64,000 nt of DNA from an uncultured Candidatus Saccharibacteria bacterium (GCA_964350985.1 CAYGLK010000002.1:382-64381); one strand, 5' to 3'. Numbered from the stretch's first letter, positions 29,001 to 44,014 are shown. The notes: generated by a model not told the origin, from the sequence alone. Translations and numbers: made by a program.

Positions 29001-31013
29001 TAGTCTCATTTCCCATCCAGTCAGACCTTCTTCTCCAGCGTCACGGTTATTGTCAGAGTTTCGGTTATGGAACTTGATCACAGTAATGGTTAATTGATTT
29101 TGATCATTTGGATCTACTCCTGGACTTTCAAAGTCAAAAGTAGTTACTTTAGCTGTAGTATCTAGTACCACCTTGTCAAAGTATCCGTCTAGATCAGCAT
29201 CATTTAGTGACGTATCACCAGTATTGATGGCAAACGCTCTTATCACTGAACCTGCACCTTCGTTATCCATATCAGCTGGACTAGCAGGACATGTATGAGG
29301 TGAACCACCACTAGTAGTTACAGGATAATCTTGTGTTGGATCAAAAGTTACAGTTGCAAATCCTGCTGTAGTTCCGTTTGAAGGTACTACATCGTACTTA
29401 CAGTCGTAATAATTAGTTGGACTTGTTGCTGCAAAGTTAGCGTAGACGTTTAAGTAAAATTCTTCTGAGTCAGTGTCAGCTCCTCCTGCTCCAATCTTAA
29501 AGTCATATGAGAAAGCTTCAAGCTCGGAAATATTTCCTAGCCAAAAATATTCACCGATGAATTTTCTCGGTGCATCAGTATTACTGATCGGTAGTACATA
29601 TAGTGCTCCGTCACCAATGACACTTTCATCTTCATTGAATGCAATTGGAGTAGCATTTGCTAGATCTCGATTGAATAACCACCCCTTACCAGTTCCTAGA
29701 TCATAAGTATTTCCGGTTACTTCAACAGTTTCTGACGGTTTTGGTGGTGGTAAGACAGAAGCTTCTAGTGAAAGATTATCAATTAAGTAACCTTCTCCAG
29801 CATTTGTAGGTACAGCAGTTCCGCTAGCTCTAAATAGTAGTGTTTTGAGTAGTCGTGGGCTCTGTTCTGCTGATGCTTCGTTGTCAAAACGGTAGTAATT
29901 TTCCCAAGTACTACCAGTATGGGCTAGTGCACCATCAATATAGATTTCAGCTACATCATTATCAGGACCATCTACAGTATCAATCACAAATTTAATTGTA
30001 TGAGGAACATCTCTAGACAATGTCCCAAGATCAGTTGATACAAAGTTAGCTGGATTAGTAGTTCCTTGTGTGTCAAAGAATGTCACCGCTATACCAGTTG
30101 CATTATCAGCAAATGACAAGTAACTCATCCGAGAACCATCCCCGCGATCTGGAGAAACAGAAAGAAACATGCCTGTCTGTTCTTGAGTTGGCTTTGTAGA
30201 AGCGATGTCAAACTCAGCTTCATAGTGAGTGTAACGAGTTCCAACAGCAAAAGTTCCAGCAGTAGCGTCTACTTCTCCAACAGAGTCTGCAAAAGGAGCT
30301 GCAAAAGTGTGATCACCGAAAGAACTACTTGTTACAGAGTTTGAAATCCGTAGTGACTGACAACCAAAGTCAGTATAGCCATAGGTGTTCTCTACAATCT
30401 CTTGATCAAAAGGTCCTGTTGATTTCCAAGCATTTTGCCCATCAACATCTCCTAGAGAGAAGGTGTCAAAGGTAGTGTTTCCAACATTGTCTGTCGTATC
30501 ACATACTGGAACACTAGCTACAATCTCATCACCAGAAACGACCACATTACTTATATATGCATTATCTGTACCTCCAGCTGAGTTTACGGAGAAATAAATC
30601 TCCAGATTAGGGATATCTGACGTAGCAACATTTAGTGGCAAATTATTGACTGAGCCTATTTCACCAGCCCCTAATCCAGCTTCTCCATTAACGAATCCGA
30701 CTTCTGTTGAAGCTGCTCCGATTCGATAGCCATAACGCAATGAATCGTTAGATTCCAATCCGTCAGCAGAATCTCCTTGACCAGTTAAATCATAATCAAA
30801 TGAAAGAGTGATATTTTCATTATCTGTAGTATCAACTAGACCAACATATTCAGTCACATTGGCCTCAACTAAGATCGGTCCGGCGCTACCTCCTAGCTGT
30901 GTTGCTGCATTAGCAACAAAAAAAGACGCTGGAAAAGCGCTAATAAGTAAGGATGTCATTAACAGTAGTGCGGCAGCACGAGCTGAAAATTGTTTGTGTA
31001 AAGTAGAAATCAT
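26076..31013 (-). CDS. Giant secreted cell-surface protein (about 1645 aa) with repeated Cna-B/prealbumin-like domains and a C-terminal peptidoglycan-binding-like domain
   Basis: Signal peptide (start moved to Met 31013); repeated about 100-aa modules (GWEMRLYKE...GTYFVCE / GWKFNFYKE...GIYHVCE / AGWQLALVGE); Ser/Thr-rich linker; C-terminal VMKLQLFLSIVMGY...FDAVTFENVKAFQ. Confidence 0.7.
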   Translation of the reverse strand: MISTLHKQFSARAAALLLMTSLLISAFPASFFVANAATQLGGSAGPILVEANVTEYVGLVDTTDNENITLSFDYDLTGQGDSADGLESNDSLRYGYRIGAASTEVGFVNGEAGLGAGEIGSVNNLPLNVATSDIPNLEIYFSVNSAGGTDNAYISNVVVSGDEIVASVPVCDTTDNVGNTTFDTFSLGDVDGQNAWKSTGPFDQEIVENTYGYTDFGCQSLRISNSVTSSSFGDHTFAAPFADSVGEVDATAGTFAVGTRYTHYEAEFDIASTKPTQEQTGMFLSVSPDRGDGSRMSYLSFADNATGIAVTFFDTQGTTNPANFVSTDLGTLSRDVPHTIKFVIDTVDGPDNDVAEIYIDGALAHTGSTWENYYRFDNEASAEQSPRLLKTLLFRASGTAVPTNAGEGYLIDNLSLEASVLPPPKPSETVEVTGNTYDLGTGKGWLFNRDLANATPIAFNEDESVIGDGALYVLPISNTDAPRKFIGEYFWLGNISELEAFSYDFKIGAGGADTDSEEFYLNVYANFAATSPTNYYDCKYDVVPSNGTTAGFATVTFDPTQDYPVTTSGGSPHTCPASPADMDNEGAGSVIRAFAINTGDTSLNDADLDGYFDKVVLDTTAKVTTFDFESPGVDPNDQNQLTITVIKFHNRNSDNNRDAGEEGLTGWEMRLYKEMPSSWSLVATGTTDVTGQKKFPQQKEAGTYFVCEVNQLGWTQVAPAEDTQTVNTSPNVGEEGAYCTRTVYTDVADRSTKPEIGNVSNDLNNENQFNFSGLKFENKNGDRDRDIGEDVLAGWKFNFYKEVAGDWTFIASSTTGADGVYKFPTQYDAGIYHVCEENQIGWDQVRQDWSGTPYHIVTDNLSPNASIEGPYCATATYTDESDRSKKSYFGNMKEPEVVDYSTVTMCKYDEQDNPLAGWQLALVGEQVLKLAFAPTADTQTMSAVPAGDYVLKAEGSYNYGNGNRFADARFSERKPGEANYVGPYLPWVVASPVHGGLAVQVDGDLGALWGDVFSPSHVYYGSVSKATTGDIQFTMYDDGYSDNSGSIDLTLSKGFTGVTEANGCITFTDVPYGSYEVEELLQGGFENTSGLTEVEVDEDTETFTVVNNDLSFVPPCEVEAYSDAGTVVIENNAYATSTYVHKNWTASIPGADWIWEAYQVIDPTVTTIKTFEETFTAVDPNTATLDVAADNGYRVFVNDELVADRTGNANNFQTHTQKTFTSEILDELVSGENTLRIEVTNSGVPNSNYLQNPAGLLFKLVVNGASDCAVTTETEPIPDTLVITNPAADNDVVPRTLFSFEAEYTDNDTTVDNIQWAIRAGTCSAGVGTIAGNVDGFNNTSTFSGINFSAQLDTTTWDAGNYCFIVNPSEQTGEPNLRESRLFIIEPIVDTDPAPVAMYEISGFKYEVTGSATSTVSDWTITATNGTTSTTTVTAVDGSYSFMLPEGSWTVSEEMQLGWDQSSVNQNGVFLADGPGLEECNISLSSGRSSSNTCDFYNEQEVIASTPSSSSRSSSSGTQTSRFATPTPEGLVLGASTSTTTTMCPFLDEYQKIGTDNTWFEVMKLQLFLSIVMGYDNPATGVFDAVTFENVKAFQLRYSDEVLDPWFDAGITADNNPTGYVFKTTKWKINDIICPGHEAFPTLTE

Positions 31014-31141
31014 AATTAAAGTGAATAAGTTTATAAAACTCACCACGAGCCCACAGCCCATAGATACAAATACGGTACTCTCATTTCACAAAATTGCAAG
31101 ACATTTTTATTGCCTATTGTATTCTTACTTATATAAGATAG

Positions 31142-31608: not shown

Positions 31609-31643
31609 ACCACGTTGGGAATTAAATATAATCTAACTGTCTA

Positions 31644-31666
31644 TCTGAGACGATGTTAGAACTTTT
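31644..31666. repeat. Island repeat copy R15 (partial core tctgagacgatgttagaactttt)
   Basis: 20/23 identity to repeat core. Confidence 0.7.
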
Positions 31667-31669
31667 ATG

Positions 31670-31933
31670 CTAGAGAACAGAGAATAAGGCAGCCACGATA
31701 ATTGCTATTAACAAGGAAATTCCAAAGGAAATCAGTGATTTCTTAATTCGATTCTCGCTATTATAAACAAAACCTATTAATCCAAATATTAATGGTACCA
31801 CTATGAAATATACTGGTAAAATCCACAACCTATCCGTAAGTCCTTCAAGTGTGTGATTAGGGTTGGAACGACTAATAAAAAGAATCAGACCACTAACTAC
31901 CGTAGACGAAATAATTATTGATATGTTTTTCAT
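31670..31933 (-). CDS. Small 2-TM membrane protein; cassette 2
   Basis: Track ORF 31670..32083 reads through repeat R14 (..KKVLTSSHTAS..); real start taken at Met 31933 just downstream of a TATATTAT -10. Confidence 0.4.
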   Translation of the reverse strand: MKNISIIISSTVVSGLILFISRSNPNHTLEGLTDRLWILPVYFIVVPLIFGLIGFVYNSENRIKKSLISFGISLLIAIIVAALFSVL

Positions 31934-31945
31934 ACCTATAATATA

Positions 31946-31990
31946 GCAAATTGTGTTGCTGGCTGTGTGGGACGATGTTAGAACTTTTTT
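31946..31990. repeat. Island repeat copy R14 (gcaaattgtgttgctggctgtgtgggacgatgttagaactttttt)
   Basis: Full core; its left flank aaattgtgttgctg is identical to the flank immediately 3' of tRNA-Gln. Confidence 0.85.
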
Positions 31991-32122
31991 TATGCTGTAG
32001 TGTACAGGTTTTGAGAAGTCTATTTGACAAAGATGAATAACTAATGTATAAAACATGAGTGTCGAAAGAAAATCGATCTTCATGGATAAGTACCTTAAAT
32101 TAAATTACGAAGCGAGGGTGTC

Positions 32123-32452
32123 ATGTCGAGAATTTACGAAAAGAATAGAAACTCCCACCCCTCTAGCGCTAAGCTAGTAAGGCACTTGTTGGTGAAAGAA
32201 ATGAAACAAGTTCGAGGAGAAGGAAACGGTGGACTTCCGCAATACATAGGTATGCCATTACTTCTTCCACCCAACACAGTTCTTCAAACGCTTTTGGATG
32301 CTGAGTCATTCAAAAGCCCGATCTTTGTCTTGTACGAAGAAAGAGGGGTAGTAAACACCTACCAAACTCACAATGTCATCAGCTTTCTGCAAATTGGCGA
32401 CCTCTACTTCCTTTACACCGAGCACACTACCTATCAAGTAATGCTCGATTAA
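32123..32452 (+). CDS. Hypothetical protein (only plus-strand cassette gene)
   Basis: 109-aa ORF followed by a strong plus-strand terminator. Confidence 0.35.
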   Translation: MSRIYEKNRNSHPSSAKLVRHLLVKEMKQVRGEGNGGLPQYIGMPLLLPPNTVLQTLLDAESFKSPIFVLYEERGVVNTYQTHNVISFLQIGDLYFLYTEHTTYQVMLD

Positions 32453-32515
32453 ACTCGTCAAGAGTGAGGTCTTGTTTGATTCAAAGCATTTAAAGTGAAA
32501 TAGCCGCCCGAAGAA

Positions 32516-32560
32516 GCCTGGAGGAGCAAATGCTCAATCATGCTCCTCCAGGCGGTTTTT
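32516..32560 (+). terminator. Intrinsic terminator (gcctggaggagc...gctcctccaggc + GGTTTTT)
   Basis: 12-bp perfect stem and T-run on plus strand. Confidence 0.65.
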
Positions 32561-32569
32561 ATATAAAAT

Positions 32570-32598
32570 GGCTTTCTGGGACGATATTAGAAAAATTT
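32570..32598. repeat. Island repeat copy R13 (degenerate: ggctttctgggacgatattagaaaaattt)
   Basis: Core GGGACGAT-TTAGAA conserved; ends at the NADAR gene stop codon. Confidence 0.6.
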
Positions 32599-33073
32599 AT
32601 CCCAACAACTCTGACCTAAGCTCCATCCAAATTTCACCTAACCAATTCTTTCCCTGCCAATCTTCACCGCGTCCCCAACAACTGTCTTTTGGTGAATCTT
32701 CAACCAATTTTGTACTTCCTGTTTCTTGCAAAGTCTTTTTAATATATTCATGCTGAGACAATTTATTTCGGCAAATATCCTTCATCACTTCTCTTTTTTC
32801 TTCCTCCCAATTAATGCTTAGCTTTCCTTGATACTTAATAGCAAGTTTTAAGGCGTCATGTGCAGATTTTGCGTTTGCTATCTCCTCGATAATTTCTGAG
32901 TCATTAAAGCCAGCTGCCTGGAAAGCATGCTCTGACGTTTGCCATTCACGCCCCTTCCACGTTACGGCAAATGCGGCAAAATTTGAAAAACAATAACCAA
33001 ATTCTCCAGCATAAAAAAGAATTGGGTCTGTGATTTGTTCTGAATATTGATTCTCACCCTTGATGACAAACAT
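32597..33073 (-). CDS. NADAR-domain (YbiA/DUF1768) protein; cassette 4
   Basis: ILFYAGEFGYCFSNFAAF...WQTSEHAFQAAGF...LVEDSPKDSCWGRGEDWQGKNWLG are hallmark NADAR motifs. Confidence 0.8.
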   Translation of the reverse strand: MFVIKGENQYSEQITDPILFYAGEFGYCFSNFAAFAVTWKGREWQTSEHAFQAAGFNDSEIIEEIANAKSAHDALKLAIKYQGKLSINWEEEKREVMKDICRNKLSQHEYIKKTLQETGSTKLVEDSPKDSCWGRGEDWQGKNWLGEIWMELRSELLG

Positions 33074-33077
33074 GATA

Positions 33078-33163
33078 AAAGTATATCAAAGTTCCGTCGT
33101 ACCTGTTTGGCATAGATTTTAGAGTCGAAAATAAGTCTCAAATATCATACTGGCTGTTAAAGG
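33078..33163. repeat. Island repeat copy R12 (extended, degenerate: aagtatatcaaagttccgtcgtacc...gaaaataagtctcaaatatcatactggctgttaaagg)
   Basis: About 80% identical over about 85 bp to the extended copy upstream of the MBL gene (43966-44040). Confidence 0.7.
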
Positions 33164-33293
33164 TTTGGCCAGGATTCGTTTATTTAAATAAAGAGCTTTT
33201 GAAATCAGATACTGTAGCAGTTTTAATATTTTGTACACGACCTATCACCACCGCACCTAAAGATAAATCCTGCAGCGACAAAATTTTTACTTA

Positions 33294-34586
33294 TTATTTC
33301 ACCTTAACTCCCTCCGGAATACTGTTTGGATCAACAATAAATCCTTGCATGTCCTTACGTCCAATAATTACCGGGAAGCGTAGATGTCCCCGCGGTGTGT
33401 ATGTTGCAATTGAATCTATCTTTTTACCCTTCATTTTGAATTGCAAAGATACAGTTTGGCGTCTCTGACGCCCGCTACCTGAACGAACGCTTACAAATTT
33501 ATTACGCTCGTCTAGACCCAACTCTTCTACTAAGTCACTATCTAGTGACGTACGATAAGCACCTGTATCCACCTTGGCTCGTACCGTCTTCTTTTTCTTA
33601 TTGCCATAAATAGTAATCTTCTCTATGACCGATAGTATATTAGAAGGAATATCTTCAACGGTTTCAAGCGATACTTCCGCAAAAAGTTTTTTTGCCAATT
33701 CAACCCCTCGCTCAATTTTTTGAACCTTAAGATCAGCTATTCTTTCTAAACGAGTACGTAATGAAGCTTGGTTTGCTACTTGTATTCCTAATCCGGGTCG
33801 AGCATTTATTTCAAGCACCAACGGACCATGCTGTTGATCAAGTACAACATCAATACCCGCAAAGCCTAGTCTTGAGCATAGCTGAGCCTTTACTGCTACT
33901 TCTAAAATCTTGTCCCAATCAGGAATTTTGATGCCACGCACTTTTGTTTTAGTTCCTGGAATGTATTCTGTGACCTGTTGATTGACTACTCCATAAGTAG
34001 TAATACCTGTTCTCATGTCTATACCCACACCTAGAGCACCTAAGTGTAGGTTGGCTTTACCATCAGAAAAGATAGTCGGTAGACGCATCATCGCCATCAC
34101 CGGTACGCCGTTACAGACAATCAAACGAACATCTGGCACGCCTTTACTTATGTATTTTTTGAAAAAAGGATGTGGAATTATGCGATCTTCTATAAACGCA
34201 GCGTCTGGAAGATTATTAAGCGAATGCTCACCGTCAAGCGTACTAAAAATGATTCGCTCGAGCTCCGCTATATCTATGTCATTATTTTTTTCAGTACTTC
34301 CATGAGTACCATTCCACTTGCGCACCACTGTAATACCACGCCCACCATAACCGCGTGCTGGTTTCACTGCAAAATCCTTCGGTAGCAAAGACCAATCAAA
34401 ATTACGAACATCTTGCAATGAACGAAATACTGCCAAAATCGCATTGGTAGGAACATCATTTTCTAGTAAACGCTTTTTCGTCAATAACTTATCATCAGCT
34501 ACTAGTTTTTGACTACGTCGATTGAACTGTCTTATATATAAGTAATTGCGAGCATTCATGCCCAGCATTGAAGTGCTGATAGCCAT
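33294..34586 (-). CDS. RimK-related ATP-grasp (alpha-L-glutamate-ligase-like) enzyme fused to a C-terminal retropepsin-like aspartic protease domain
   Basis: ATP-grasp core motifs (PDVRLIVCNG, GPLVLEINARPGL); C-terminal RAKVDTGAYRTSLD (D-T-G aspartyl protease signature). Confidence 0.75.
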   Translation of the reverse strand: MAISTSMLGMNARNYLYIRQFNRRSQKLVADDKLLTKKRLLENDVPTNAILAVFRSLQDVRNFDWSLLPKDFAVKPARGYGGRGITVVRKWNGTHGSTEKNNDIDIAELERIIFSTLDGEHSLNNLPDAAFIEDRIIPHPFFKKYISKGVPDVRLIVCNGVPVMAMMRLPTIFSDGKANLHLGALGVGIDMRTGITTYGVVNQQVTEYIPGTKTKVRGIKIPDWDKILEVAVKAQLCSRLGFAGIDVVLDQQHGPLVLEINARPGLGIQVANQASLRTRLERIADLKVQKIERGVELAKKLFAEVSLETVEDIPSNILSVIEKITIYGNKKKKTVRAKVDTGAYRTSLDSDLVEELGLDERNKFVSVRSGSGRQRRQTVSLQFKMKGKKIDSIATYTPRGHLRFPVIIGRKDMQGFIVDPNSIPEGVKVK

Positions 34587-34590
34587 ACAA

Positions 34591-35565
34591 CTAATCTAGT
34601 GAAACTTTATTAAATCGAAACACTTCAAACAATCGTAGACCAAAGTAGCGGCCAACTAGAATATTTGCAGGTATGACAAGGAACAATACTTCTGGATACA
34701 AAATAATAAAATTCTGGATTGCAATACTTGTAGCCGCTAAATAGCCGACCAAACCAATTACTATTGTTGTAGCGGTGATCATAAATGTTTCTGAACTACT
34801 CTTGTGTAATTGTACTGATACGATCATGTCTCCAAGTAACATCAAAACCAAAATTGGGAAAATTGATACGCTCAAAATACGTTCAAAATCAAGTACAACT
34901 CCTACAGACAAGGCTGCAAACACAGCTAGTGATAGAAGTACCATCGACAACGAGCGCTTTGGATAAAACATGATTTTTAATTTTGTGAGACTTATTTTAG
35001 ATATATACGAAGCAATAAGAATTGCACTCAATACCAGTAATCCAACAGTTATACCGACTGCAACCAGTGCAAACGCTAAGGCAATAGGGACCAACATATC
35101 CAAAGTCGGAAGACCAACTACTGTCCGAACAAAACTAACAAGTAAAGCTAGGAACGGGGTGAGCAGGATCAAAAAAATTGTATTTGCTGGTACACCAGCT
35201 CTCACAGATTCTTGTACCCAAAAAGCCATACCATTAAACCACCCCAATTTATCAACCAAACGATCTTCAAACAGTGAGATGATTGCTACTTTTTCTGACA
35301 ACTCTTCTGGCTGGGTAATATCTTTTGATTGTACCAGTTCACGCTGAGAAATAATGCCAGCCGCGGTTGTAGAAGGTGTTGCATCTTCTGCGTTAACCGT
35401 GCCGTTAGTAGTTGTAGTGGTACTCGTTGCCACAAGTGACTCCTCAGATTGAAACTGAAAATTTGAATTAGAACCCTGAGCAAGTCCAGCCTGCGGCACA
35501 CTAAAAAACGTCGTACAAACTACAACTAGTGTGAGCATCAAACATTTGTTATATATAAATTTCAT
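34591..35565 (-). CDS. Seven-TM membrane protein of the inactive-transglutaminase-fused-7TM family
   Basis: Secreted N-terminal segment then about 7 TM helices; genomic context (between QEGLA and RimK-related ATP-grasp genes) matches the described triad. Confidence 0.5.
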   Translation of the reverse strand: MKFIYNKCLMLTLVVVCTTFFSVPQAGLAQGSNSNFQFQSEESLVATSTTTTTNGTVNAEDATPSTTAAGIISQRELVQSKDITQPEELSEKVAIISLFEDRLVDKLGWFNGMAFWVQESVRAGVPANTIFLILLTPFLALLVSFVRTVVGLPTLDMLVPIALAFALVAVGITVGLLVLSAILIASYISKISLTKLKIMFYPKRSLSMVLLSLAVFAALSVGVVLDFERILSVSIFPILVLMLLGDMIVSVQLHKSSSETFMITATTIVIGLVGYLAATSIAIQNFIILYPEVLFLVIPANILVGRYFGLRLFEVFRFNKVSLD

Positions 35566-35566
35566 A

Positions 35567-36850
35567 TTACCAATCAGTTAAAATTTCTAAGGCTTTCAAT
35601 GCTTTGATGTGGCGAGGCAGCAACGGGTTATATTTACCTAGAAAAAGTTTAGGATAGATATGTGGCTTTTCAGACAATAGATGCCAAATCTCAATATTAC
35701 CTTCCATATAGACTATATCTCTTGTGTAAATAAAGCCAGTGCTTTGTCCAGTGGTACCACGAAAGATACGTACGCACACATCCCAAGCAGAGCGTAAGGG
35801 CACTAATTTTTGATGCTCTTTGCTCACGGTCGCTAAAATTGTGTAGTAATCAACCATCACACTAAACACTGATCTAAAGTCTCGAGGTGTACCGTCCATA
35901 CCCACAGCAAGACTAGCGGCCATATAGCGATCAAAACCATAAAATTCGGTTGCTCCCTCACACTGTTGTTGAACGTATGAGGCAACGCCTTCTTCTCCTT
36001 GCAGATAAGAATCCAAACCAATTTGAAGTAAATGTAGGTTACTCCCGGCTCCACAATACGAACGCCGCACATGCACTCCGATCTCGTGTGTTGCCAATGC
36101 CTTAACTTGCAGCTTAGTCAGTAACTTAGGACGAGCAAGTAACTTTTCCTTACCAGGGATGTAGATAATCCTTTGTGGTGTACTCACTGCAAAATTGACT
36201 CTTTTGTTTTCTTGGTCTACTTGGATTTTCCACCCTGTTATCTCATACTCATCGAGAGTTTCTCTAAAAACAGCCACAACTTCATCAGGAGTCTGAATAA
36301 AAACATCATCGTGTACTAATGGAGGTAATATATCCGAACTGATATCTACTCCAGTTACGTTAATTTTAGAAAAGATTTTTTTAAGATGTCGAACTTCAAC
36401 TAAATGCTCTGGGCCCGCTAGTTTAGTCAGATTCATCACCTTTTTGGCGATATACGCAAAGTATTTATTCTTTGGTTTACCGTGCAACTGACAGCTTAGA
36501 CGATAAAATTCTTTATCGTCACTATTCATCGAAGCATTAAACATACCAACTCTGTTAATTTGATTTGTTATTTTTGCCTCATAGAGCTTTTTAACGACCT
36601 CGTTCTCTTCAGTTTTAACAATCTCTTGTAAAAGCAATTCTAAGCTTTTACAAGAAAGCGGCTCATTCATTTTTGATTCAGTATTGCTTGTGTATGAAAA
36701 AAGAGGGTTTTCTATTTCATTATCCAAAAAACGCTCACGCTCTTCGTTGTCGATTTTCATACGACTCTGGATCCAGTCCACATCGTCACTATAGCTCTTA
36801 TTTATGGCTACTAGCTGGCTAAACCAAGATCCATCGTAAATTTGTGCCAT
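35567..36850 (-). CDS. QEGLA-motif (DUF1704) family protein
   Basis: HEIGVHVRRS and LQGEEGVASYV (QEG.A-like) motifs; first gene of the three-gene module. Confidence 0.5.
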   Translation of the reverse strand: MAQIYDGSWFSQLVAINKSYSDDVDWIQSRMKIDNEERERFLDNEIENPLFSYTSNTESKMNEPLSCKSLELLLQEIVKTEENEVVKKLYEAKITNQINRVGMFNASMNSDDKEFYRLSCQLHGKPKNKYFAYIAKKVMNLTKLAGPEHLVEVRHLKKIFSKINVTGVDISSDILPPLVHDDVFIQTPDEVVAVFRETLDEYEITGWKIQVDQENKRVNFAVSTPQRIIYIPGKEKLLARPKLLTKLQVKALATHEIGVHVRRSYCGAGSNLHLLQIGLDSYLQGEEGVASYVQQQCEGATEFYGFDRYMAASLAVGMDGTPRDFRSVFSVMVDYYTILATVSKEHQKLVPLRSAWDVCVRIFRGTTGQSTGFIYTRDIVYMEGNIEIWHLLSEKPHIYPKLFLGKYNPLLPRHIKALKALEILTDW

Positions 36851-36919
36851 ATTGGCTAAAACATTAGCATTAACGCCACAATTTGTACATTATCCAAGAG
36901 TGATAAATGAAGTGTTAAT

Positions 36920-36949
36920 GGCCGTCTGGGACGAAGTTAGAACTTTTTT
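36920..36949. repeat. Island repeat copy R11 (ggccgtctgggacgaagttagaacttttttt)
   Basis: 27/31 identity to core. Confidence 0.8.
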
Positions 36950-36981
36950 ACTCTATATTTAGTCAAATAAATCTCTATTGA

Positions 36982-37425
36982 TTACTTTTCTTCAAAAAAC
37001 TCTGAATATTGACTTCCTTGCAACATAGACTCTAGAGCCTCCTTCATAAACGGCACAAATTCAGATAGTCTCTCACCCACAGGAATCCACATTACTTCAC
37101 TGCACCTGTGTGGCTCGGTATTGACTGGATCTTGGTCACAACACTCAATTTTGAAATAATAATGAGTTCTATCATGTCTACCCTCAACATTTCGGTTGTA
37201 CTGTATGTGAACAAAACTAATATCGTCGACTGAAACATCGATACCAACCTCTTCTTTTGCCTCACGCACTGCTGCTTCTCGAGGGGTTTCATCAGGGTCA
37301 ATGTGTCCAGCTGGCATATTGAGGCGACCATCACAATATCCAGTATTGCAACGACGACCTACAAACCATTTACCATCACACTCAAGTAACAAACAGACAG
37401 CAGGAATGATTACATGTTTTTCCAT
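36982..37425 (-). CDS. NUDIX hydrolase; cassette 6
   Basis: Canonical Nudix box GHIDPDETPREAAVREAKEEVGI. Confidence 0.85.
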   Translation of the reverse strand: MEKHVIIPAVCLLLECDGKWFVGRRCNTGYCDGRLNMPAGHIDPDETPREAAVREAKEEVGIDVSVDDISFVHIQYNRNVEGRHDRTHYYFKIECCDQDPVNTEPHRCSEVMWIPVGERLSEFVPFMKEALESMLQGSQYSEFFEEK

Positions 37426-37475
37426 ACATCAAAGTATATCAAAAGTTCAAAAGTGAAGGTATGAAGAATATGTTT

Positions 37476-37530
37476 ATAAATAAGCCTCAAATATCAAGCT
37501 GGCTGTGTGGGACGATGTTAGAACTTTTTT
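37476..37530. repeat. Island repeat copy R10 (ataaataagcctcaaatatcaagctggctgtgtgggacgatgttagaactttttt)
   Basis: Full extended copy. Confidence 0.9.
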
Positions 37531-37532
37531 GA

Positions 37533-37916
37533 TCAATATATAAGAAAAGCCGTACTCCAGGTGGCTTTCCTGTCATACGACTTACAATTCTTACAATGCT
37601 CAACCAGGTAATCATAAACCCGCATCCCATTCCATGGGAAATTATCAAGTTTCTGGGGAATATTTGGAAGATCTGGAGGAACAACGAAGATTACATCCAG
37701 ATCTCCTTCATCATCAGATTTTTGGATACGAATTCGATCTCCCTCCTTCACTTCGTACCAGTCTGGAAAATAACTTGATTTTTCGTTTCGTTTGAGAATT
37801 TTGTCTGATATTAGCCCGAGTTCTCTGAGCTCCGATTGCTCAATCTTTCTACCAGTACAAGTTGGTTGAAAAACAAAATCGGAACAACCAACATAGGTCT
37901 CCAGCAAAATAATCAT
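37533..37916 (-). CDS. Hypothetical protein; cassette 7
   Basis: 127-aa ORF ending 2 nt from the R10 repeat; no recognisable family. Confidence 0.4.
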   Translation of the reverse strand: MIILLETYVGCSDFVFQPTCTGRKIEQSELRELGLISDKILKRNEKSSYFPDWYEVKEGDRIRIQKSDDEGDLDVIFVVPPDLPNIPQKLDNFPWNGMRVYDYLVEHCKNCKSYDRKATWSTAFLIY

Positions 37917-37967
37917 TGTCGTTATCTCTTGTTAACTGACAGGATAATACAACAGAATATAGTTGAC

Positions 37968-38009
37968 GTCAATACTGCTGGCTGTATGGGACGATGTTAG
38001 AACTTTTTT
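37968..38009. repeat. Island repeat copy R9 (gtcaatactgctggctgtatgggacgatgttagaactttttta)
   Basis: Full core; contains the TAA stop of the upstream gene (gTTAgaac). Confidence 0.9.
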
Positions 38010-38419
38010 AGTAGTTCAAGATCACCATTAAGAACTAAGGGATCCATCGCTTCGATCTCATCAGTATAACCACTCTGCGGGGCTGGGTTTAAAATCGCCA
38101 AATCCTTACCCAATACGTGACCAAACCCCATTTCTAAAAATGTATTAGCGCCGATGTAGTTTTGAATACCATTCTTTTCAGTATTTACTACTAGTACAAT
38201 GTCATATTCTTTTATTTTTTCGTAGTAGCCTTTTATCAAATCCAGCTCTTTTTTATCTACCGCACGTTCTGTCTCAGTAACATGAGTGAAGTCATTGTCT
38301 CGAAACTTTTTCACACCATGAGGAATTTCTACCGTGAATCCCATGGCTTCAAGCTCACTTTGAATTTTTAATACAGTGCCTGACGCAGAGATTGAACAAC
38401 AAATTATAATTGATTTCAT
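37997..38419 (-). CDS. Nucleoside 2-deoxyribosyltransferase-like (flavodoxin-fold) protein; cassette 8
   Basis: MKSIIICCSISASG...YDIVLVVNTEKNG...GANTFLEMGFGHVLGKDLAILNP pattern of NDT-like proteins; start set to Met 38419 because the first Met (38428) overlaps the TATAAT -10. Confidence 0.5.
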   Translation of the reverse strand: MKSIIICCSISASGTVLKIQSELEAMGFTVEIPHGVKKFRDNDFTHVTETERAVDKKELDLIKGYYEKIKEYDIVLVVNTEKNGIQNYIGANTFLEMGFGHVLGKDLAILNPAPQSGYTDEIEAMDPLVLNGDLELLKKF

Positions 38420-38475
38420 AATGTGCATTATAACAAAAGTTCTATAGTCCTTGACGGGTACTAAATTTCAGATTT

Positions 38476-38528
38476 AAAAATAAGCCTCAAAAATGTTGCT
38501 GGCTGTATGGGACGATGTTAGAACTTTT
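38476..38528. repeat. Island repeat copy R8 (aaaaataagcctcaaaaatgttgctggctgtatgggacgatgttagaactttt)
   Basis: Full extended copy. Confidence 0.9.
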
Positions 38529-38988
38529 ATAGATACAATATCTTAATTCCAAGACGCTCTGCCTGCTCGTGCTCCCACTTAGAGCCGAAAGATGTTTGCC
38601 AATCTGGTAAAAAATAAAACTCGGAAATGTGTCCAGATTCAAAAAGAGGTAAATAAAACTGATTTAATAAATCCATATCATATCCAGCCTGCTCTGTGTT
38701 CGATCTAATATTCTGTATTGGAACCTCAAAAGGTATTTGATTAAAAATTTTAACTCCCTCCTTTGATAAATTTTCTATAGTAACTTCAAAAAGCTCCAAA
38801 TTTTTCTCAACTGAACCTAATCCTCCAGTTGATATAGGGCCGCAAACTTGTATGACAGGTTGTGGCATTCGCTCAATAACAGACATCGCTATTTTTTGGA
38901 GGTCATAATAATTTCTAGCGTTTTCTAAAAGAATATAATCTCCTGGTTCCCAGTATTTGTAATTCATAGCTAGCTCTTTTTCTTCCAT
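38527..38988 (-). CDS. DUF4406 / nucleoside-deoxyribosyltransferase-like protein; cassette 9 (second gene)
   Basis: VIQVCGPISTGG...YFLPDWQTSFGSKWEHEQAERLGIKI fits DUF4406-like pattern; overlaps upstream MTase gene by 19 nt. Confidence 0.45.
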   Translation of the reverse strand: MEEKELAMNYKYWEPGDYILLENARNYYDLQKIAMSVIERMPQPVIQVCGPISTGGLGSVEKNLELFEVTIENLSKEGVKIFNQIPFEVPIQNIRSNTEQAGYDMDLLNQFYLPLFESGHISEFYFLPDWQTSFGSKWEHEQAERLGIKILYL

Positions 38989-39644
38989 TTCAATAATAAG
39001 AAACCTGGGTATGTATCTACTATTTGTTCAGCTGCACTATCAAAGCGCTCGTCATAAGCTTCTAATATAAAATGATCTAACATAAAGGAAGAGAAGTACT
39101 CTTTTAAGGTATGTGTAGGCTCTTCAAAAGTTAGCTTTCCATCAAAGCAAATAGACTCCACAATCTCCTTTTCAAAATAATCTTTTGGTTGTTTCTTCTT
39201 TTCAATAAACTGCCTTAATGGATGAGCTACTAATAGTACAAAATAACCCCCCGGCTTTAACACACGAAATACCTCATTCCATATGGGTTCCAAATCTGAA
39301 GCAGTCTGCAGTGCATATTTTGAAAATACATAATCAAAACTATCAGATTCTGATGGAACATCCTCAAACAAACCATATTTAAAATCTAATTCTGGATAAC
39401 TCTCTTTTGCCTGCATCAGTAATTCTCTTGAGGCATCGATACCAAGAACATAATCGGCACCTAATTGTGAGAGCAAATTAGTTTCAAAACCATTACCAGA
39501 TCCAAGATCCAAGATTTTTCTTCCCGAAAGATCCTCAGGTAGAACTTCATTATATGCTGCACGACTATCTACATTACCTAGCTCTAGAGCATCAGAAAAT
39601 TCAGTCGCAATGTTATCGTACTGATGACTTAAGCTTTTATTCAT
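38970..39644 (-). CDS. Class I SAM-dependent methyltransferase; cassette 9 (first gene)
   Basis: Motif I ILDLGSGNG, motif II/III spacing; leaderless promoter TGGTATACT upstream. Confidence 0.8.
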   Translation of the reverse strand: MNKSLSHQYDNIATEFSDALELGNVDSRAAYNEVLPEDLSGRKILDLGSGNGFETNLLSQLGADYVLGIDASRELLMQAKESYPELDFKYGLFEDVPSESDSFDYVFSKYALQTASDLEPIWNEVFRVLKPGGYFVLLVAHPLRQFIEKKKQPKDYFEKEIVESICFDGKLTFEEPTHTLKEYFSSFMLDHFILEAYDERFDSAAEQIVDTYPGFLLLKWKKKS

Positions 39645-39715
39645 AAAAGTAAGTATACCAAAAACAAGACTGTCCTCAAACTTTTATACGTTTTAAAATA
39701 TAGCTGCTTTAGCGA

Positions 39716-39748
39716 GCTGGCTGTCTGGGACGATGTTAGAACTTTTTT
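39716..39748. repeat. Island repeat copy R7 (gctggctgtctgggacgatgttagaactttttt)
   Basis: Full core. Confidence 0.9.
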
Positions 39749-39876
39749 GATATAAAAAGCGGTTGCGCGCCGTTACATTATGTAAATACACGTAAATGAA
39801 ACTCTGCTATCAAAAGTAGAAAACCGCTCCCCCCATGCGGTTTTCATGGTTAGAGCGGTTAGAGTTGTGGTTGATC

Positions 39877-40791
39877 TCATCGAATTGTCAGGGCATTGTC
39901 GATGGAAAGCACGAGAGCTCCCATCTGTTGCTTGCCTTCAATCAACAGCTCCTTCAATTGATTGAGTTCGTCCATGCTCGCTCCATTGATTGCTTTCGCA
40001 AACTCTGGACCCCGCATCTCGAGAAGAACATCCATATCTGCACTCAAACGTTGGAAGAACCGTTCGGCATGACGACGCACATCACGAGGCCTTCCCGTGC
40101 GTTTCTCGCCAGTAATACTCTCCACACACTTGCGTGCATGAGCAAGCCGAAAACGAAGTGGAACCCTGAGCATTTGCTGATACACCACCAGCTGCTGTTC
40201 CGTCGAAAGAGCCGAAAGTACGACAGCTTCACCAAAACGAAGAAGTTCCTTTTCGTTGGTTTCGGGATGCATCTTTTGCTGAAGTTCGGGTACAAGCCGC
40301 TGCAGCGAAAGGTATTGGTAGACCCAAGAAGGCGACTTGTCCAAACCCTCAGCTAGCAGTGCTACCTTTTCATGTCGATCCACCTGGTATTGCAACGCGC
40401 AAGATATTTCCATGTGCGTTTGGCCTTCCCGGTGGTGATTGGAAATCAAGGAAAGCAAATGTTGCTCGCGATCTTCAGGATTTCCCTCCTCAACACAAAT
40501 CCGGATGGTCTGAAGACCGGCAATCTGGTGAGCCAGCCAACGACGTTCGCCGTCGATGATCTCATAATCACAACCATCTTCGGTGGTGGACAGTTTTCTG
40601 ACCTGAATCGGCGTACGCTGGCCATGCATGACGATTGAACGAGCAAGGCTGCGAAGCGCTGATTCTTTGAAATAGGTTCGTGGCTGATTCTTGTACCGAC
40701 GAACCGATGACACAGGTACACGTAATTCGTGTTGGCTTTGAACCTCTGGTGTGCCGTCCATATTCCCTCCCCAATAACTCTCAAGGCCCAA
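39877..40791 (-). CDS. ParB/Sulfiredoxin N-terminal-domain (ParB-like nuclease) protein; cassette 10, GC-rich (about 50%)
   Basis: YEIIDGERRWLAHQIAG is the ParB-Nter DGxxR motif; markedly higher GC and different codon usage from neighbours. Confidence 0.6.
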   Translation of the reverse strand: MGLESYWGGNMDGTPEVQSQHELRVPVSSVRRYKNQPRTYFKESALRSLARSIVMHGQRTPIQVRKLSTTEDGCDYEIIDGERRWLAHQIAGLQTIRICVEEGNPEDREQHLLSLISNHHREGQTHMEISCALQYQVDRHEKVALLAEGLDKSPSWVYQYLSLQRLVPELQQKMHPETNEKELLRFGEAVVLSALSTEQQLVVYQQMLRVPLRFRLAHARKCVESITGEKRTGRPRDVRRHAERFFQRLSADMDVLLEMRGPEFAKAINGASMDELNQLKELLIEGKQQMGALVLSIDNALTIR

Positions 40792-40838
40792 TGCCTGAGT
40801 TGCGGACCATTAAATACGTGTTCTTCGATTATGTCAAT

Positions 40839-40871
40839 GCTGGCTGTATGGGACGATGTTAGAACTTTTTT
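40839..40871. repeat. Island repeat copy R6 (gctggctgtatgggacgatgttagaactttttt)
   Basis: Full core; HAD gene stop TAA overlaps its T-run. Confidence 0.9.
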
Positions 40872-41469
40872 AACAATCAACTTTCAGTAGCCGCAATTCA
40901 GTTATGAGATTATCATAGTCAGTAAATAAGATTGATTTAATTTCTAATTTTTTTGCAGCGTCAGTATTTTTAACCTGATCATCAATAAAGACCACCTCTT
41001 CAGGAATTAATCCCGTAATAGTTAAGGCTCTATCAAAATAGAGAGGGTCAGGCTTTTTCAAACCTTCCTTAAAAGACAATATCTCATAATCAAAGTATTC
41101 ATAAAGACCCATTTCAATATCTGCCCCATATCTTTGTTCCGTTAAATTGGTTAGTGCGGCTAATACATAATTTTTCTTAAGTTGCTTTAGCAAGGAAAGT
41201 ACTTGAGCATCCACAGATGACAATCTTACAGTTTCTTCACTCCACACATTTAGCATATCCTCTACTCTGAACTTGTTGTTAATCCCAAAAGCACAAAGCA
41301 TGTGTTCTGAAGTGACAGCTCCTGTCAAAAGATCATTTAAATGTTCTTCATGGTAAGCAGAGACTATATCAGCTGAGATTCCGACTCGCTCTGAAAATAG
41401 TTGGTATATTTTCGAAAAATCACCATGTGTAATTACTTTATGAATATCAAAAAAAATACCTTTAATCAT
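40870..41469 (-). CDS. HAD-superfamily hydrolase; cassette 11 (second gene). Start at Met 41469
   Basis: IKGIFFDIHKV (motif I variant) and VVFIDDQVKN (motif IV). Confidence 0.6.
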   Translation of the reverse strand: MIKGIFFDIHKVITHGDFSKIYQLFSERVGISADIVSAYHEEHLNDLLTGAVTSEHMLCAFGINNKFRVEDMLNVWSEETVRLSSVDAQVLSLLKQLKKNYVLAALTNLTEQRYGADIEMGLYEYFDYEILSFKEGLKKPDPLYFDRALTITGLIPEEVVFIDDQVKNTDAAKKLEIKSILFTDYDNLITELRLLKVDC

Positions 41470-41525
41470 GGCGCAAGTATAACAAAACCACCCCAGCGAG
41501 AAAACTATCTCCTCGCATAGGGTGG

Positions 41526-42065
41526 TCACAAATACCGCGTCAAAATTTCAACAACTTCATCCATTTTCTTGTCGGACACATCAACCACGGCGACAACTGG
41601 TATATTACCTTGGACGAGCGCTGGATTACCCCACTCATCGGATATTTTCTTGTAGACACCAATGTCGTGTGGTTTACCCAAAGAACCCCTTTCGACGCAA
41701 AGAAATCGCTGTCTGCGAACTTCTTCTCTACAGGTTAAGTTAACGACCTGCAGCTCGACTTCCAGCTTTAGACACAGGTCACTCAGCCAGAGCAGGTAAT
41801 CCTTACCAATATGAGCATGGTTTGAATGCGTCATGATGAGTGTCTGCACAGAGCCAGATTCCGCTGCACTACGAATAATGACCTCCCTGAGACTGTAAAG
41901 CAACTCAGTGGAAGCACTTCCGAGCCAAGCATCTCCATAGATTGATTTGACAATGTTGGTGGTCAAGTGGTTGTGCACCAGAGGATTGTTGGTTTTTTCT
42001 GAAAGAGCTGCACCAATCGTCCTCTTACCTATCCCGCAACCGCCGCTTATCAAAAATAGCTTCAC
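41526..42065 (-). CDS. P-loop NTPase, small nucleoside/nucleotide-kinase-like; cassette 11 (first gene)
   Basis: Walker A ISGGCGIGKRT at N-terminus, 179 aa. Confidence 0.6.
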   Translation of the reverse strand: MKLFLISGGCGIGKRTIGAALSEKTNNPLVHNHLTTNIVKSIYGDAWLGSASTELLYSLREVIIRSAAESGSVQTLIMTHSNHAHIGKDYLLWLSDLCLKLEVELQVVNLTCREEVRRQRFLCVERGSLGKPHDIGVYKKISDEWGNPALVQGNIPVVAVVDVSDKKMDEVVEILTRYL

Positions 42066-42134
42066 GGATTTCCCCCTTTAAGTAATTGATGTGTTTTTTA
42101 TCTATAACACATATTTAGTATTCTGTCACTAGTT

Positions 42135-42167
42135 GCTGGCTGTATGGGACGATGTTGGAACTTTTTT
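42135..42167. repeat. Island repeat copy R5 (gctggctgtatgggacgatgttggaactttttt)
   Basis: Core with one substitution. Confidence 0.9.
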
Positions 42168-42245
42168 GACACAAAAACAGCCCGCCGAAACGAGTCCATA
42201 GGACTGTCTTTGCGAGCTTGGTAGATCATACAATTGACACTCAAA

Positions 42246-42770: not shown

Positions 42771-42845
42771 CTTTAAACTCCGTTAGGTTGAGAACGAGAT
42801 TGTTCAAGTAAAACAATAACACTGTAAAACATGTATGTCAATACT

Positions 42846-42876
42846 GCTGGCTGTCTGGGACGATGTTAGAACTTTT
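42846..42876. repeat. Island repeat copy R4 (gctggctgtctgggacgatgttagaactttt)
   Basis: Full core. Confidence 0.9.
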
Positions 42877-42939
42877 CTATCAATATAAAAGGGCCCCGTT
42901 TTCACAGGACCCTCCTTTTCTCTCTGTATCCGCCGAGCG

Positions 42940-43218: not shown

Positions 43219-43282
43219 GAGACTCTCCTTATTTAGCCCTGAATTATTAATATAAGAGCATATTTTTTATGCTTTGTAAAGT

Positions 43283-43315: not shown

Positions 43316-43317
43316 AA

Positions 43318-43959: not shown

Positions 43960-44014
43960 TATTAAAAGTATACCAAAGTTCCGCCGTACCCGTCCGGTAT
44001 AGAATTTAGGTGTT

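Follow-up and report, generated by a model that had tools for sequence, protein, structure and literature searches.

A Patescibacterial set of a MATCAP-type carboxypeptidase, a 7TM membrane protein and a ligase-retropepsin fusion, related to RloABC and located in a repeat array at tRNA-Gln

In this study, three co-oriented genes on the minus strand (36850-33294) of a 64-kb window, which is the whole stretch of DNA that was analysed, were found to be a stripped-down relative of the Pseudomonas stress-tolerance system RloABC. The trio probably constitutes a CPR (Patescibacteria) set of a probable glutamate-chain builder, two probable chain trimmers and a membrane partner. The explanation favoured here, with confidence slightly above even, is that these genes are the Patescibacteria version of the RloABC or RimK-RimB type, namely a circuit at the membrane by which acidic peptide chains, most likely of poly-alpha-glutamate, are assembled and trimmed. 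The first-pass annotation of this DNA had regarded the biochemical function of such modules as still unknown, which is outdated. The genetics of RloABC and the cleavage of poly-Glu by RloA and RimB were published in 2025 (PMC12239564, PMC11957791), and the TMCP/MATCAP enzymes have been characterized as deglutamylases (PMC10499314).

Three adjacent genes and their protein families

ORF calling identified gene A (35567-36850, 427 aa), gene B (34591-35565, 324 aa) and gene C (33294-34586, 430 aa), all on the minus strand, which encode a zinc metallocarboxypeptidase of the MATCAP/DUF1704 (QEGLA) type, a 7TM_transglut-type membrane protein and an ATP-grasp ligase with a C-terminal retropepsin, respectively. 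The tightly packed operon with spacers of 1-4 nt that had been noted earlier was recovered exactly, with 1 nt at the A/B junction (TGG TAA t ATG) and 4 nt at the B/C junction (GAT TAG ttgt ATG). The three genes are probably co-transcribed and probably translationally coupled, and they are real genes rather than chance ORFs because homologues of the fusion protein reach E = 1e-167 to 1e-282. A promoter-like sequence, TTAACA-18-GATAAT (36889-36918, minus strand), lies 39 nt upstream of gene A and matches at 10 of 12 positions, which is weak evidence; promoter-like sites showed no excess over shuffled sequence in the whole region. The family assignments of the first-pass annotation held for the Pfam models, as MATCAP, 7TM_transglut, ATPgrasp_ST and Asp_protease_2 all scored above gathering, but the cut-offs of TIGR02421, TIGR02291 and RloB were not reached.

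Gene A matched Pfam MATCAP (PF08014) with 73.8 bits (cut-off 27) and obtained 72.2 bits, below the cut-off of 338.65, on NCBIfam TIGR02421, the proteobacterial QEGLA equivalog. Moreover, a profile from 19 CPR orthologues of gene A matched human MATCAP (7Z5G) with E = 1.9e-25 and with the motifs aligned. The HEIGVH motif (HExxxH; aa 255-260, 36071-36088, minus strand), which is predicted to be zinc-binding and catalytic, aligns with HEIGTH of the human enzyme, and its residues H255, E256 and H260 are invariant across the 19 diverged orthologues. Likewise invariant are E287, G288 and A290 of QGEEGVA (the 'EEG' or QEGLA motif; aa 284-290, 35981-36001, minus strand), which may supply the third metal ligand; in TMCP/MATCAP, the third site for metal binding has been putatively assigned to the EEG motif (Nicot et al. 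2023, PMC10499314). Both motifs had been pointed out in the first-pass annotation, together with the AKVDTGAYRTSLD motif of gene C, and all three are present. The protein is cytoplasmic, as no hydrophobic or transmembrane segment was found along its length, and it is predicted to act as a metallocarboxypeptidase on C-terminal residues.

Gene B matched PF14402 (7TM_transglut) with 74.1 bits (cut-off 25), only aa 131-321 being covered. Hydropathy and linker composition divided the protein into three parts: aa 1-29 form a signal peptide, aa 30-125 an outer linker that is acidic and rich in Ser/Thr, and aa 126-324 a transmembrane bundle. The RloB model was matched only at its positions 313-504 of 508 and gave 50 bits (cut-off 900). 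The protein had been described as an inactive-transglutaminase-fused type, which proved incorrect: profile search, hydropathy and composition revealed no such domain, and the N-terminal 125 aa consist of the signal peptide and the low-complexity linker. The cytoplasmic C-terminal tail, GLRLFEVFRF (34612-34641, minus strand), is a candidate docking site for the ligase, and its residues G309, L310, R311, E314, R317 and F318 are 93-100% conserved among 81 sequences. In addition, the GLRxxExxRF motif of the tail runs straight into the ATP-grasp domain in a natural triple fusion (P0148). A docking role of gene B may be inferred from these features, and a role in export would be a guess.

The ATP-grasp amidoligase domain of gene C (aa 1-302, 33681-34586, minus strand) is of the RloC/TIGR02291 (ATPgrasp_ST) type, RloC being presumably a member of the TIGR02291 family. 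It matched ATPgrasp_ST (PF14397) with 215.9 bits (cut-off 31.4), and the Pfam name of this family, 'sugar-transfer associated', points to a cell-surface polymer. TIGR02291 (rimK-related alpha-L-glutamate ligase-like) was by far the best family for aa 6-302, with 265.5 bits, yet below its equivalog cut-off of 314.2; the RimK family model TIGR00768 gave 46.2 bits over aa 225-266 only (cut-off 143.4). The ligase residues K75, D246, E259 and N261 are invariant in homologues. Structure prediction of the fusion, which the first-pass annotation had proposed, yielded an AlphaFold model with a mean pLDDT of 84.5, in which the ligase was nearest to ArgX/LysX and RimK and the protease was near retropepsins; a low-confidence linker (aa 303-316) joins the two domains.

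The retropepsin-like aspartic protease domain (aa 317-430, 33297-33638, minus strand) matched Asp_protease_2 (PF13650) with 31.5 bits (cut-off 24.3). The suggested link to DUF785/Zn_protease was partly sustained, as the domain reached 26.2 bits on the Zn_protease/RimB-like PF05618, just under the cut-off of 27, and DUF785 2PMA was found along with RloA 9G58 and RloA2 9G59 among the top PDB matches of the domain model, all of which were retropepsins. The AKVDTGAYRTSLD segment (aa 337-349) contains the catalytic signature D340-T341-G342 (33561-33569, minus strand). These three residues and A343 are invariant in 44 homologues, so the conservation of the D-T-G motif on which the earlier assignment had depended was verified, and KxDTGAY aligns with RloA2 9G59. 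Neither a hydrophobic segment nor a signal peptide was found on the protease, which indicates that it is cytoplasmic.

The repeat array at tRNA-Gln

The module is the largest unit of a co-oriented array on the minus strand (31635-45320) composed of 14 repeat cores and small accessory genes, including two NUDIX genes, NADAR, methyltransferases, HAD, ParB_N, a metallo-beta-lactamase fold and DUF4406. The array lies directly 3' of tRNA-Gln(TTG) (45249-45320, minus strand) in the same orientation, as a tRNA-anchored integrative island would, and is anchored there; pyrG, ftsX, ftsE and prfB are ahead of the tRNA at the array head. The repeat core (25-35 nt) always starts no more than about 10 nt from a stop codon, and many array units carry a promoter-like element of their own. 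The two repeats between which the module had been placed both exist. The upstream copy (36916-36966, minus strand), between the NUDIX cassette and gene A, is good and contains the 17-nt core GTTCTAACTTCGTCCCA at 36927-36943 with one mismatch, whereas the downstream copy (33117-33189, minus strand) is degenerate; the left half of its core is replaced, and only the right half, ACAGCCAG...GGAACTTTGATATACT, is kept and leads into the NADAR cassette.

Relatives of the module share a synteny that extends from ATPase and DsbA over the module to YHYH and PolB-exo through GH1, EamA and GH42. None of these neighbourhood genes was found within the 64-kb window, and in the present genome the module has moved away from the chromosomal location that it usually occupies. 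The description of the module as mobile cargo in a cassette array was thus correct with respect to the repeat array and the unusual location, but the array is not integron-like in mechanism. Folding of the attC kind was better than in shuffled sequence at only 2 of 8 sites, the hairpin test gave z = -0.74 for the upstream and z = +0.12 for the downstream repeat of the module, and a scan of 20 ORFs of the array and its surroundings found no recombinase or integrase.

Similar arrays were found in 69 metagenome contigs, the module being absent from all 69, and the gene content was nearly wholly different between arrays. A tRNA adjoined the array in 19 of the metagenome loci, and in all 19 it was tRNA-Gln, which shared the strand of the array and lay upstream of its first core. 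Moreover, two of the repeat units, r44507 and r31957, resemble the tRNA 3' end with its flank (z ~11); the left core half, however, is not tRNA-like. One array (L016) contains a perfect 51-nt duplicate of the 3' part of tRNA-Gln. A large serine recombinase is encoded in 6 of the 69 related arrays and abuts tRNA-Gln in two of them (L099 and L146). The constant tRNA, the matching repeat units, the duplicate, the recombinases and the differing gene content all weigh against the explanation that the core is a conserved signal in transcription or at the RNA level, placed after the genes of a variable region that the module entered by ordinary rearrangement. This explanation is considered rather unlikely, although it deserves some weight: the position of the core close to stop codons would suit a terminator-like or RNA-processing signal, and the rarity of sites that fold better than shuffled sequence, the flanking sites without hairpins, the degenerate downstream repeat and the failure to find a recombinase in the scanned ORFs speak against mobility. 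The array itself may be a more novel object than the module.

Relatives and the proposed glutamate-chain circuit

The first-pass annotation had called the fusion of ligase and protease unusual and had suggested a survey of its spread. The fusion turned out to be the standard architecture across Patescibacteria, where over 120 clusters of 59-100% identity were found, and a relative was encoded by 389 stretches in species-representative genomes, the best 80 of the 389 all being full length. In about 79 of 81 loci, the gene directly upstream of the fusion encodes the 7TM protein. A MATCAP gene is linked, in two differing gene orders, in 18 of 80 species-representative loci; its lack in the other 62 suggests that MATCAP does not belong to the core but is accessory to it. 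Natural fusions among relatives of the protease domain comprise protease-7TM, two proteases-7TM, protease-7TM-ATP-grasp and ATP-grasp-protease-MATCAP, and since they join all four domains, the domains act as one unit. The earlier view of the three genes as a self-contained unit is therefore upheld by conserved adjacency and by natural fusions in every combination.

In the favoured circuit, the ATP-grasp domain of gene C would ligate amino acids in the cytoplasm using ATP, and the retropepsin would dimerise and, like RimB, not only stimulate the ligase but also cleave long stretches of glutamate at internal positions. Gene A would then remove residues singly from the C-terminal end of the chain. 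With its invariant cytoplasmic tail, gene B may tether the ligase to the membrane, across which it would probably pass either the product or a signal. Because the protease is intracellular here but extracellular in RloA and in the protease-7TM fusions, one mechanism may not fit all variants. Glutamate as the substrate is extrapolated from RimK, RimB and RloA; the net charge of +12 of the protease domain fits the positive charge of the RloA poly-Glu channel (PMC12239564) and thereby supports the poly-Glu reading. RloA cleaves runs of at least 8 Glu (PMC12239564), and poly-Glu synthesis requires RimB, which binds RimK and increases its ATPase activity four-fold (PMC11957791). The sharing of tasks proposed for the two peptidases may be inferred, as may a cellular role that is osmotic or concerns the envelope. 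RloABC serves in hypo-osmotic tolerance, with rloB and rloC epistatic to rloA (PMC12239564), and a QEGLA gene of Photobacterium and its ATP-grasp neighbour were induced 27- and 38-fold at low salinity.

A modification of protein tails in the manner of RimK and RpsF should also be weighed, in which the ligase glutamylates the C-terminus of a cytoplasmic protein (e.g., ribosomal protein S6), the peptidases reset it and the 7TM protein only regulates on a membrane or envelope signal. The structures nearest to the ligase, RimK and ArgX/LysX, are all enzymes that add residues onto the C-terminal glutamate of a protein, glutamylated RpsF is trimmed by RimB, MATCAP enzymes work on protein C-terminal tails, and both the protease and MATCAP are cytoplasmic here. 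This is nonetheless judged unlikely, as the ligase scored 265 bits on TIGR02291 but only 46 on the model for the RimK family, a purely ribosomal target hardly accounts for a 7TM partner that is nearly universal or for the fusions with the protease outside, and a separate RimK-like gene often adjoins the 7TM/ligase-protease pair, which suggests different jobs for the two ligases. Still more doubtful is an envelope polymer, for which the ligase would add amino acids to a sugar- or lipid-linked precursor that the 7TM protein flips outward and the peptidases edit, because the Pfam label 'sugar-transfer associated ATP-grasp', the defects of Rlo mutants in cell shape, antibiotic sensitivity and biofilm, the altered membrane-vesicle production on RloB-type disruption (PMC12096838) and PBP1A nearby in many distant CPR loci are opposed by the lack of a glycosyltransferase consistently linked to the pair among the loci examined, by the strict requirement of RloA and RimB for poly-Glu runs and by MATCAP-family enzymes being known only on peptide C-termini.

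A wider reading, which extends the favoured circuit and is improbable as a whole, would see the 7TM protein and the ligase-protease as the ancient and minimal core of a trans-membrane poly-Glu machine. If it were true, a polyanionic peptide would be made in the cytoplasm, passed through the 7TM protein and trimmed on either side, which would explain why the protease is placed inside (ligase-fused) or outside (7TM-fused, secreted). Through the MATCAP link, the machine would then represent the prokaryotic forerunner of the eukaryotic writer-eraser pair of tubulin glutamylation and detyrosination, and an undescribed, integron-like CPR cassette system with its anchor at tRNA-Gln and a serine recombinase as its driver would have taken the whole machine as one unit.

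Comparison with known systems

The array resembles chromosomal integrons and CALINs in its long series of small, co-oriented and highly variable accessory genes separated by a conserved repeat that starts right after each stop codon. It differs from them in that no IntI was found among the ORFs scanned, the repeats have no consistent attC hairpin, the array is anchored at tRNA-Gln and the sole recombinase seen in related arrays belongs to the large serine type.

Gene A belongs to the same Pfam family as MATCAP/TMCP1-2 (KIAA0895L, KIAA0895), the eukaryotic tubulin carboxypeptidases and deglutamylases, and aligns with 7Z5G at the HExxxH and EEG metal-site motifs; both are paired with an ATP-grasp 'writer', which is TTL/TTLL in eukaryotes and the fused ligase here. 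The similarity is limited to about 140 aligned residues of the catalytic core, and the bacterial host has no tubulin.

RimK-RimB likewise pairs a cytoplasmic ATP-grasp ligase, the glutamate ligase RimK, with a retropepsin-like endopeptidase, the two proteins interacting physically and RimB stimulating RimK. A covalent hybrid of the two, the proteolytically active RimBK of Desulfotalea psychrophila, has already been published (Little et al. 2025, JBC, PMC11957791). Unlike gene C, RimBK has the protease at its N-terminus and no obligatory 7TM partner, it occurs in Flavobacteriales and Rhodobacterales, not in CPR, and its ligase is of another clade, all of which indicate that gene C arose by an independent fusion event.

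RloABC, an operon of Pseudomonas aeruginosa (Lormand et al. 2025, mBio, PMC12239564), is together with RimK-RimB the closest system. The protease here is fused to the ligase and cytoplasmic, whereas RloA is separate and secreted with a signal peptide; gene B lacks the inactive-transglutaminase domain that RloB carries; the operon includes a MATCAP/QEGLA carboxypeptidase gene; the host belongs to Patescibacteria rather than Gammaproteobacteria; and the scores are far under the RloB, RloA2 and RloA3 equivalog cut-offs. Both operons nevertheless combine a retropepsin-like protease with a DTG signature and a basic surface, a 7TM_transglut protein and an ATP-grasp ligase. In Pseudomonas, deletion of rloB or rloC suppresses the rloA1-3 mutant (PMC12239564), and the genetics demonstrate that the three parts of RloABC serve a single process.

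Architecture of the three-gene module

The module consists of three closely spaced genes on the minus strand, as the first-pass annotation had described, namely gene A (36850-35567, 427 aa), gene B (35565-34591, 324 aa) and gene C (34586-33294, 430 aa). The gene A/gene B junction reads TGG-TAA-t-ATG and the gene B/gene C junction reads GAT-TAG-ttgt-ATG, leaving spacers of 1 and 4 nt, which imply that the genes would be co-transcribed and are probably translationally coupled. No compositional anomaly was observed, the GC content being the same in the module (0.396) as in the window (0.394). The motifs quoted in that annotation were all found in the expected proteins, with HEIGVH and QGEEGVA at residues 255-260 and 284-290 of gene A and AKVDTGAYRTSLD at residues 337-349 of gene C. 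Overall, the observation was confirmed and its interpretation was supported in part. The three family leads (QEGLA/DUF1704, 7TM and a RimK-related ligase with a retropepsin) hold as Pfam-level matches; all three proteins fall below the NCBIfam cut-offs for equivalogs of the proteobacterial families.

The gene C product, referred to here as the fusion, contains an N-terminal ligase of the ATPgrasp_ST/TIGR02291 type (215.9 and 265.5 bits, respectively) and a C-terminal aspartic protease domain (Asp_protease_2, 31.5 bits). Structure prediction with AlphaFold (mean pLDDT 84.5) agreed with this arrangement, with a low-confidence linker at residues 303-316 between the two domains. The structures nearest to the ligase half were ArgX/LysX and RimK, and a separate model of the protease domain (mean pLDDT 73) matched only retropepsins, including RloA (9G58), RloA2 (9G59) and DUF785 (2PMA). 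The proposed D-T-G catalytic motif (D340, T341 and G342) and A343 were invariant in 44 homologues, as were the Mg/ATP residues K75, D246, E259 and N261. The fused protease is a cytoplasmic form with a net charge of +12.

For genes A and B, profiles were required, as PDB searches with single sequences gave no informative result. The gene A product matched the Pfam MATCAP family (formerly DUF1704) with 73.8 bits (cut-off 27) and fell below the proteobacterial QEGLA equivalog TIGR02421 (72 bits, cut-off 338). In an alignment with 19 CPR (Patescibacteria) orthologues, some only 19% identical, residues H255, E256, H260, E287, G288 and A290 were invariant, and the profile of these orthologues matched human MATCAP (7Z5G; E = 1.9e-25) with HExxxH and EEGxA aligned. 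MATCAP/TMCP enzymes are metallocarboxypeptidases that take the C-terminal tyrosine and glutamate off tubulin and shorten polyglutamate chains (PMC10499314). Decay or replacement of the MATCAP gene of the window, considered for its identity of 49% vs 85% for the fusion, was rejected because a 1.5-2.3-fold faster evolution of MATCAP is seen in every genome pair and the catalytic residues are intact.

The 7TM_transglut match of gene B was confined to residues 131-321, and the RloB model was matched solely in its C-terminal 7TM part; gene B has no transglutaminase domain. At its N-terminus, a signal peptide precedes a linker of about 96 aa that is rich in Ser/Thr and has a net charge of -7. Across CPR loci, the outer domain of the 7TM partner is either missing, a linker, or a PKD domain with an unknown region, and no transglutaminase domain was found among the partners sampled. 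Within the 7TM protein, conservation is highest in the cytoplasmic tail GLRxxExxRF (93-100% in 81 sequences).

Conserved pair and natural domain fusions

The fusion of ligase and protease had been regarded as unusual, a view that could not be retained, since ligase and protease are as a rule fused in Patescibacteria. Identity with the fusion of the window was 59-100% in more than 120 clusters (about 429 aa), and a relative was encoded on 389 stretches from species-representative genomes, the best 80 of which were all full length and belonged to Paceibacterota and Microgenomates. Moreover, the 7TM gene lay immediately upstream of the fusion gene in about 79 of 81 loci, and this pair is the conserved core of the module. 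MATCAP was linked in 18 of those best 80 loci; its gene is upstream in the close relatives and directly downstream in several that are more distant. The pair is frequently adjoined by RimK-like genes and by another ATP-grasp gene (about 500 aa). In many distant CPR genomes (L034-L086, e.g. L048 3829-5337 and L068 10803-11720), one or two additional ATP-grasp genes lie downstream of the pair (about 500 aa; RimK-like about 300 aa), which hints at a pathway with several ligases.

A search with the protease domain alone over 1.84 billion representative proteins recovered 512 relatives in the following architectures: stand-alone protease proteins; ATP-grasp-protease; protease-7TM (six checked, the cluster of one including a Chloroflexota protein); two proteases-7TM; protease-7TM-ATP-grasp in a single 657-aa chain; and ATP-grasp-protease-MATCAP (800 aa, with a 798-aa representative as a putative second case). 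Judged from domain architecture, these fusions in every combination show that the ligase, the protease, the 7TM protein and the MATCAP-type carboxypeptidase would form one pathway. The proposal that the module is a self-contained unit is thus upheld, both by the natural fusions that join its parts and by the conserved adjacency of the pair. In the triple fusion, the GLRxxExxRF tail runs directly into the ligase, and this invariant tail is a likely contact point among the parts of the pathway. In the protease-7TM forms, a signal peptide or membrane anchor precedes the protease, which places the protease outside the cell in those forms. Large viral contigs from IMG/VR (L157-L177, 38-508 kb) encode stand-alone retropepsin-like domains 28-34% identical to residues 335-419 of the fusion. 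Carriage of the module by phage was rejected, because the core is missing from viral contigs and the matches there are distant stand-alone retropepsin domains only.

Position of the module in a tRNA-Gln-anchored array

In close relatives, the module has a conserved neighbourhood (P-type ATPase, DsbA, in some cases RimK, the module, YHYH and PolB-exo, then GH1, EamA and GH42), and in more distant relatives the pair sits between YebC-RuvC and TyrS/PBP1A. None of these neighbouring genes was found in the 64-kb window, where the module sits inside an array of 14 co-oriented repeat cores (GTTCTAACATCGTCCCA; 31.6-44.5 kb) with small accessory genes between the cores. The array starts at a tRNA-Gln (45249-45320). 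The module was found in none of 69 other arrays, and its relocation is real and unique in this sample. The description of the module as mobile cargo of a cassette array therefore stands as regards its place in the array, away from the usual synteny; active mobility is inferred, and less securely because the downstream repeat is degenerate.

In the clade of L016-L018, in which the fusion is about 59% identical, the module directly neighbours a tRNA-Gln, lying 0.65-1 kb upstream of tRNA-Gln(CTG). In L017 (10050-10951), the tRNA-Gln is followed by a cassette-like 191-aa ORF and then a perfect repeat core, and in L016 a 51-nt 3' part of the tRNA-Gln is perfectly duplicated (9953-10003 and 10061-10111). 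The suggestion that the downstream spacer of the module is a relic of this tRNA-Gln(CTG) was rejected, its alignment score being no better than that of shuffled sequence.

The 25-nt core GTTCTAACATCGTCCCANRCRGCCA occurred in 69 metagenome stretches (L088-L156), each carrying as many as 10 co-oriented copies, and gene content was almost wholly different from array to array. In all 19 loci with an adjacent tRNA, this was a tRNA-Gln that lies upstream of the first core and shares the strand of the array. The 3' end of the tRNA and its flank matched two repeat units (z about 11). The core's left half does not resemble a tRNA, and its origin as a T-arm copy was not supported. The array is not integron-like, and attC sites were rejected as an identity for its repeats, since folding surpassed that of shuffled sequence in only two of eight, neither of them a site flanking the module, and the 20 ORFs scanned included no integrase. 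An attC R' site was considered for the apparent inverse core GAACTTTT, but the simpler account is that this sequence belongs to an extended -10-like element, TGnTATACT, located 6-9 nt ahead of the ATG and present at non-array genes across the window as well. Such elements, TGnTATA(C/A)T, end 6-9 nt before many start codons (e.g. 33080-33090, 37432-37440, 39651-39659, 44450-44458 and 45188-45196; at non-array genes starting at 22989, 24040, 25996, 48720, 49617 and 63418) and leave no room for a Shine-Dalgarno sequence, which suggests that leaderless transcripts may be common in this genome. No known RNA family was found in the array with Rfam.

A large serine recombinase (Resolvase, Recombinase and Zn_ribbon_recom domains) was encoded in six of the 69 arrays, L099 (5186-6712), L146 (96-1607), L102 (6334-7833), L113, L123 and L150, and in L099 and L146 the end of its gene overlaps the 3' end of the tRNA-Gln. 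This recombinase is a candidate for the enzyme building these arrays; none was found among the 20 ORFs scanned in and around the array of the window. The array may represent an undescribed CPR cassette system and, being widespread in metagenomes, a hitherto overlooked way for bacteria with very small genomes to exchange genes.

Several other features of the window were recorded. The module is flanked by cassettes for a NADAR-domain protein (32597-33073) and a NUDIX hydrolase (36982-37425), with weak matches to the PADLOC candidate families PDC-M42C (31.6 bits) and PDC-S07 (38.2 bits), respectively. Two array stretches (40-41 and 42-43 kb) have about 47% GC vs about 39% elsewhere. At the low-coordinate border of the array, a 1661-aa ORF (26076-31061, minus strand) with an N-terminal hydrophobic segment and repeated domains, as read by eye from the translation, looks like a giant surface protein. 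Three tandem copies of an approximately 150-nt unit (34-nt core GTnTTnTATTGTGTCGACGGGAGGGAAnGATCCT) occupy 53136-53474, between tRNA-Asp (52976-53050) and tRNA-Met (53451-53525). A class A bacterial RNase P RNA (7185-7530, minus strand, 105 bits), together with pyrG, ftsEX and prfB adjoining the array, shows by gene content that the window would be ordinary chromosome rather than plasmid or phage.

Proposed mechanism and comparison with Rlo and Rim systems

The ligase would be docked on the tail of the 7TM protein and, at the membrane, would assemble acidic peptides that are probably poly-glutamate. The protease fused to it is strongly basic (+12) and would both activate the ligase and cleave long runs. 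MATCAP would shorten the chains at their C-terminus, and the 7TM protein could couple this chain-making and trimming activity to the cell exterior. The linkage gives the bacterial relatives of this tubulin detyrosinase/deglutamylase a concrete and testable job, that is, erasing what an ATP-grasp ligase writes. In Photobacterium, a QEGLA gene and its ATP-grasp neighbour were induced 27- and 38-fold at low salinity (PMC10308900), which is circumstantial support for a possible osmotic role of the module. The module had no significant match to known anti-phage defence systems in PADLOC, and that assignment was rejected.

The module is an Rlo/Rim-type system that differs from the known members. The RloABC operon of Pseudomonas aeruginosa encodes a secreted retropepsin, an inactive-transglutaminase 7TM protein and an ATP-grasp protein; RloA cuts runs of at least eight glutamates, and a triple protease mutant, which dies under hypo-osmotic conditions, is rescued when rloB or rloC is deleted (PMC12239564). 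In contrast to the secreted RloA, the protease of the window is cytoplasmic and fused to the ligase, and its 7TM protein lacks the inactive transglutaminase. RimB is the cytoplasmic counterpart of RloA; it binds RimK, raises the ATPase activity of RimK four-fold and is required for poly-alpha-glutamate synthesis (PMC11957791). A RimB-RimK hybrid with an N-terminal protease and a true RimK ligase also exists (PMC11957791), whereas in the protein of the window the domains come in the reverse order and the ligase is of the TIGR02291 type (265 bits vs 46 for the RimK family); this protein thus looks like an independent fusion. The value of the module lies in its minimal CPR architecture, in the fusion evidence tying in MATCAP and in its host array. 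RloB and RloC matter in Pseudomonas for antibiotic tolerance, biofilm formation and virulence; the CPR version, with a bare 7TM protein and one ligase/protease polypeptide, offers a simpler starting point for in-vitro reconstitution.
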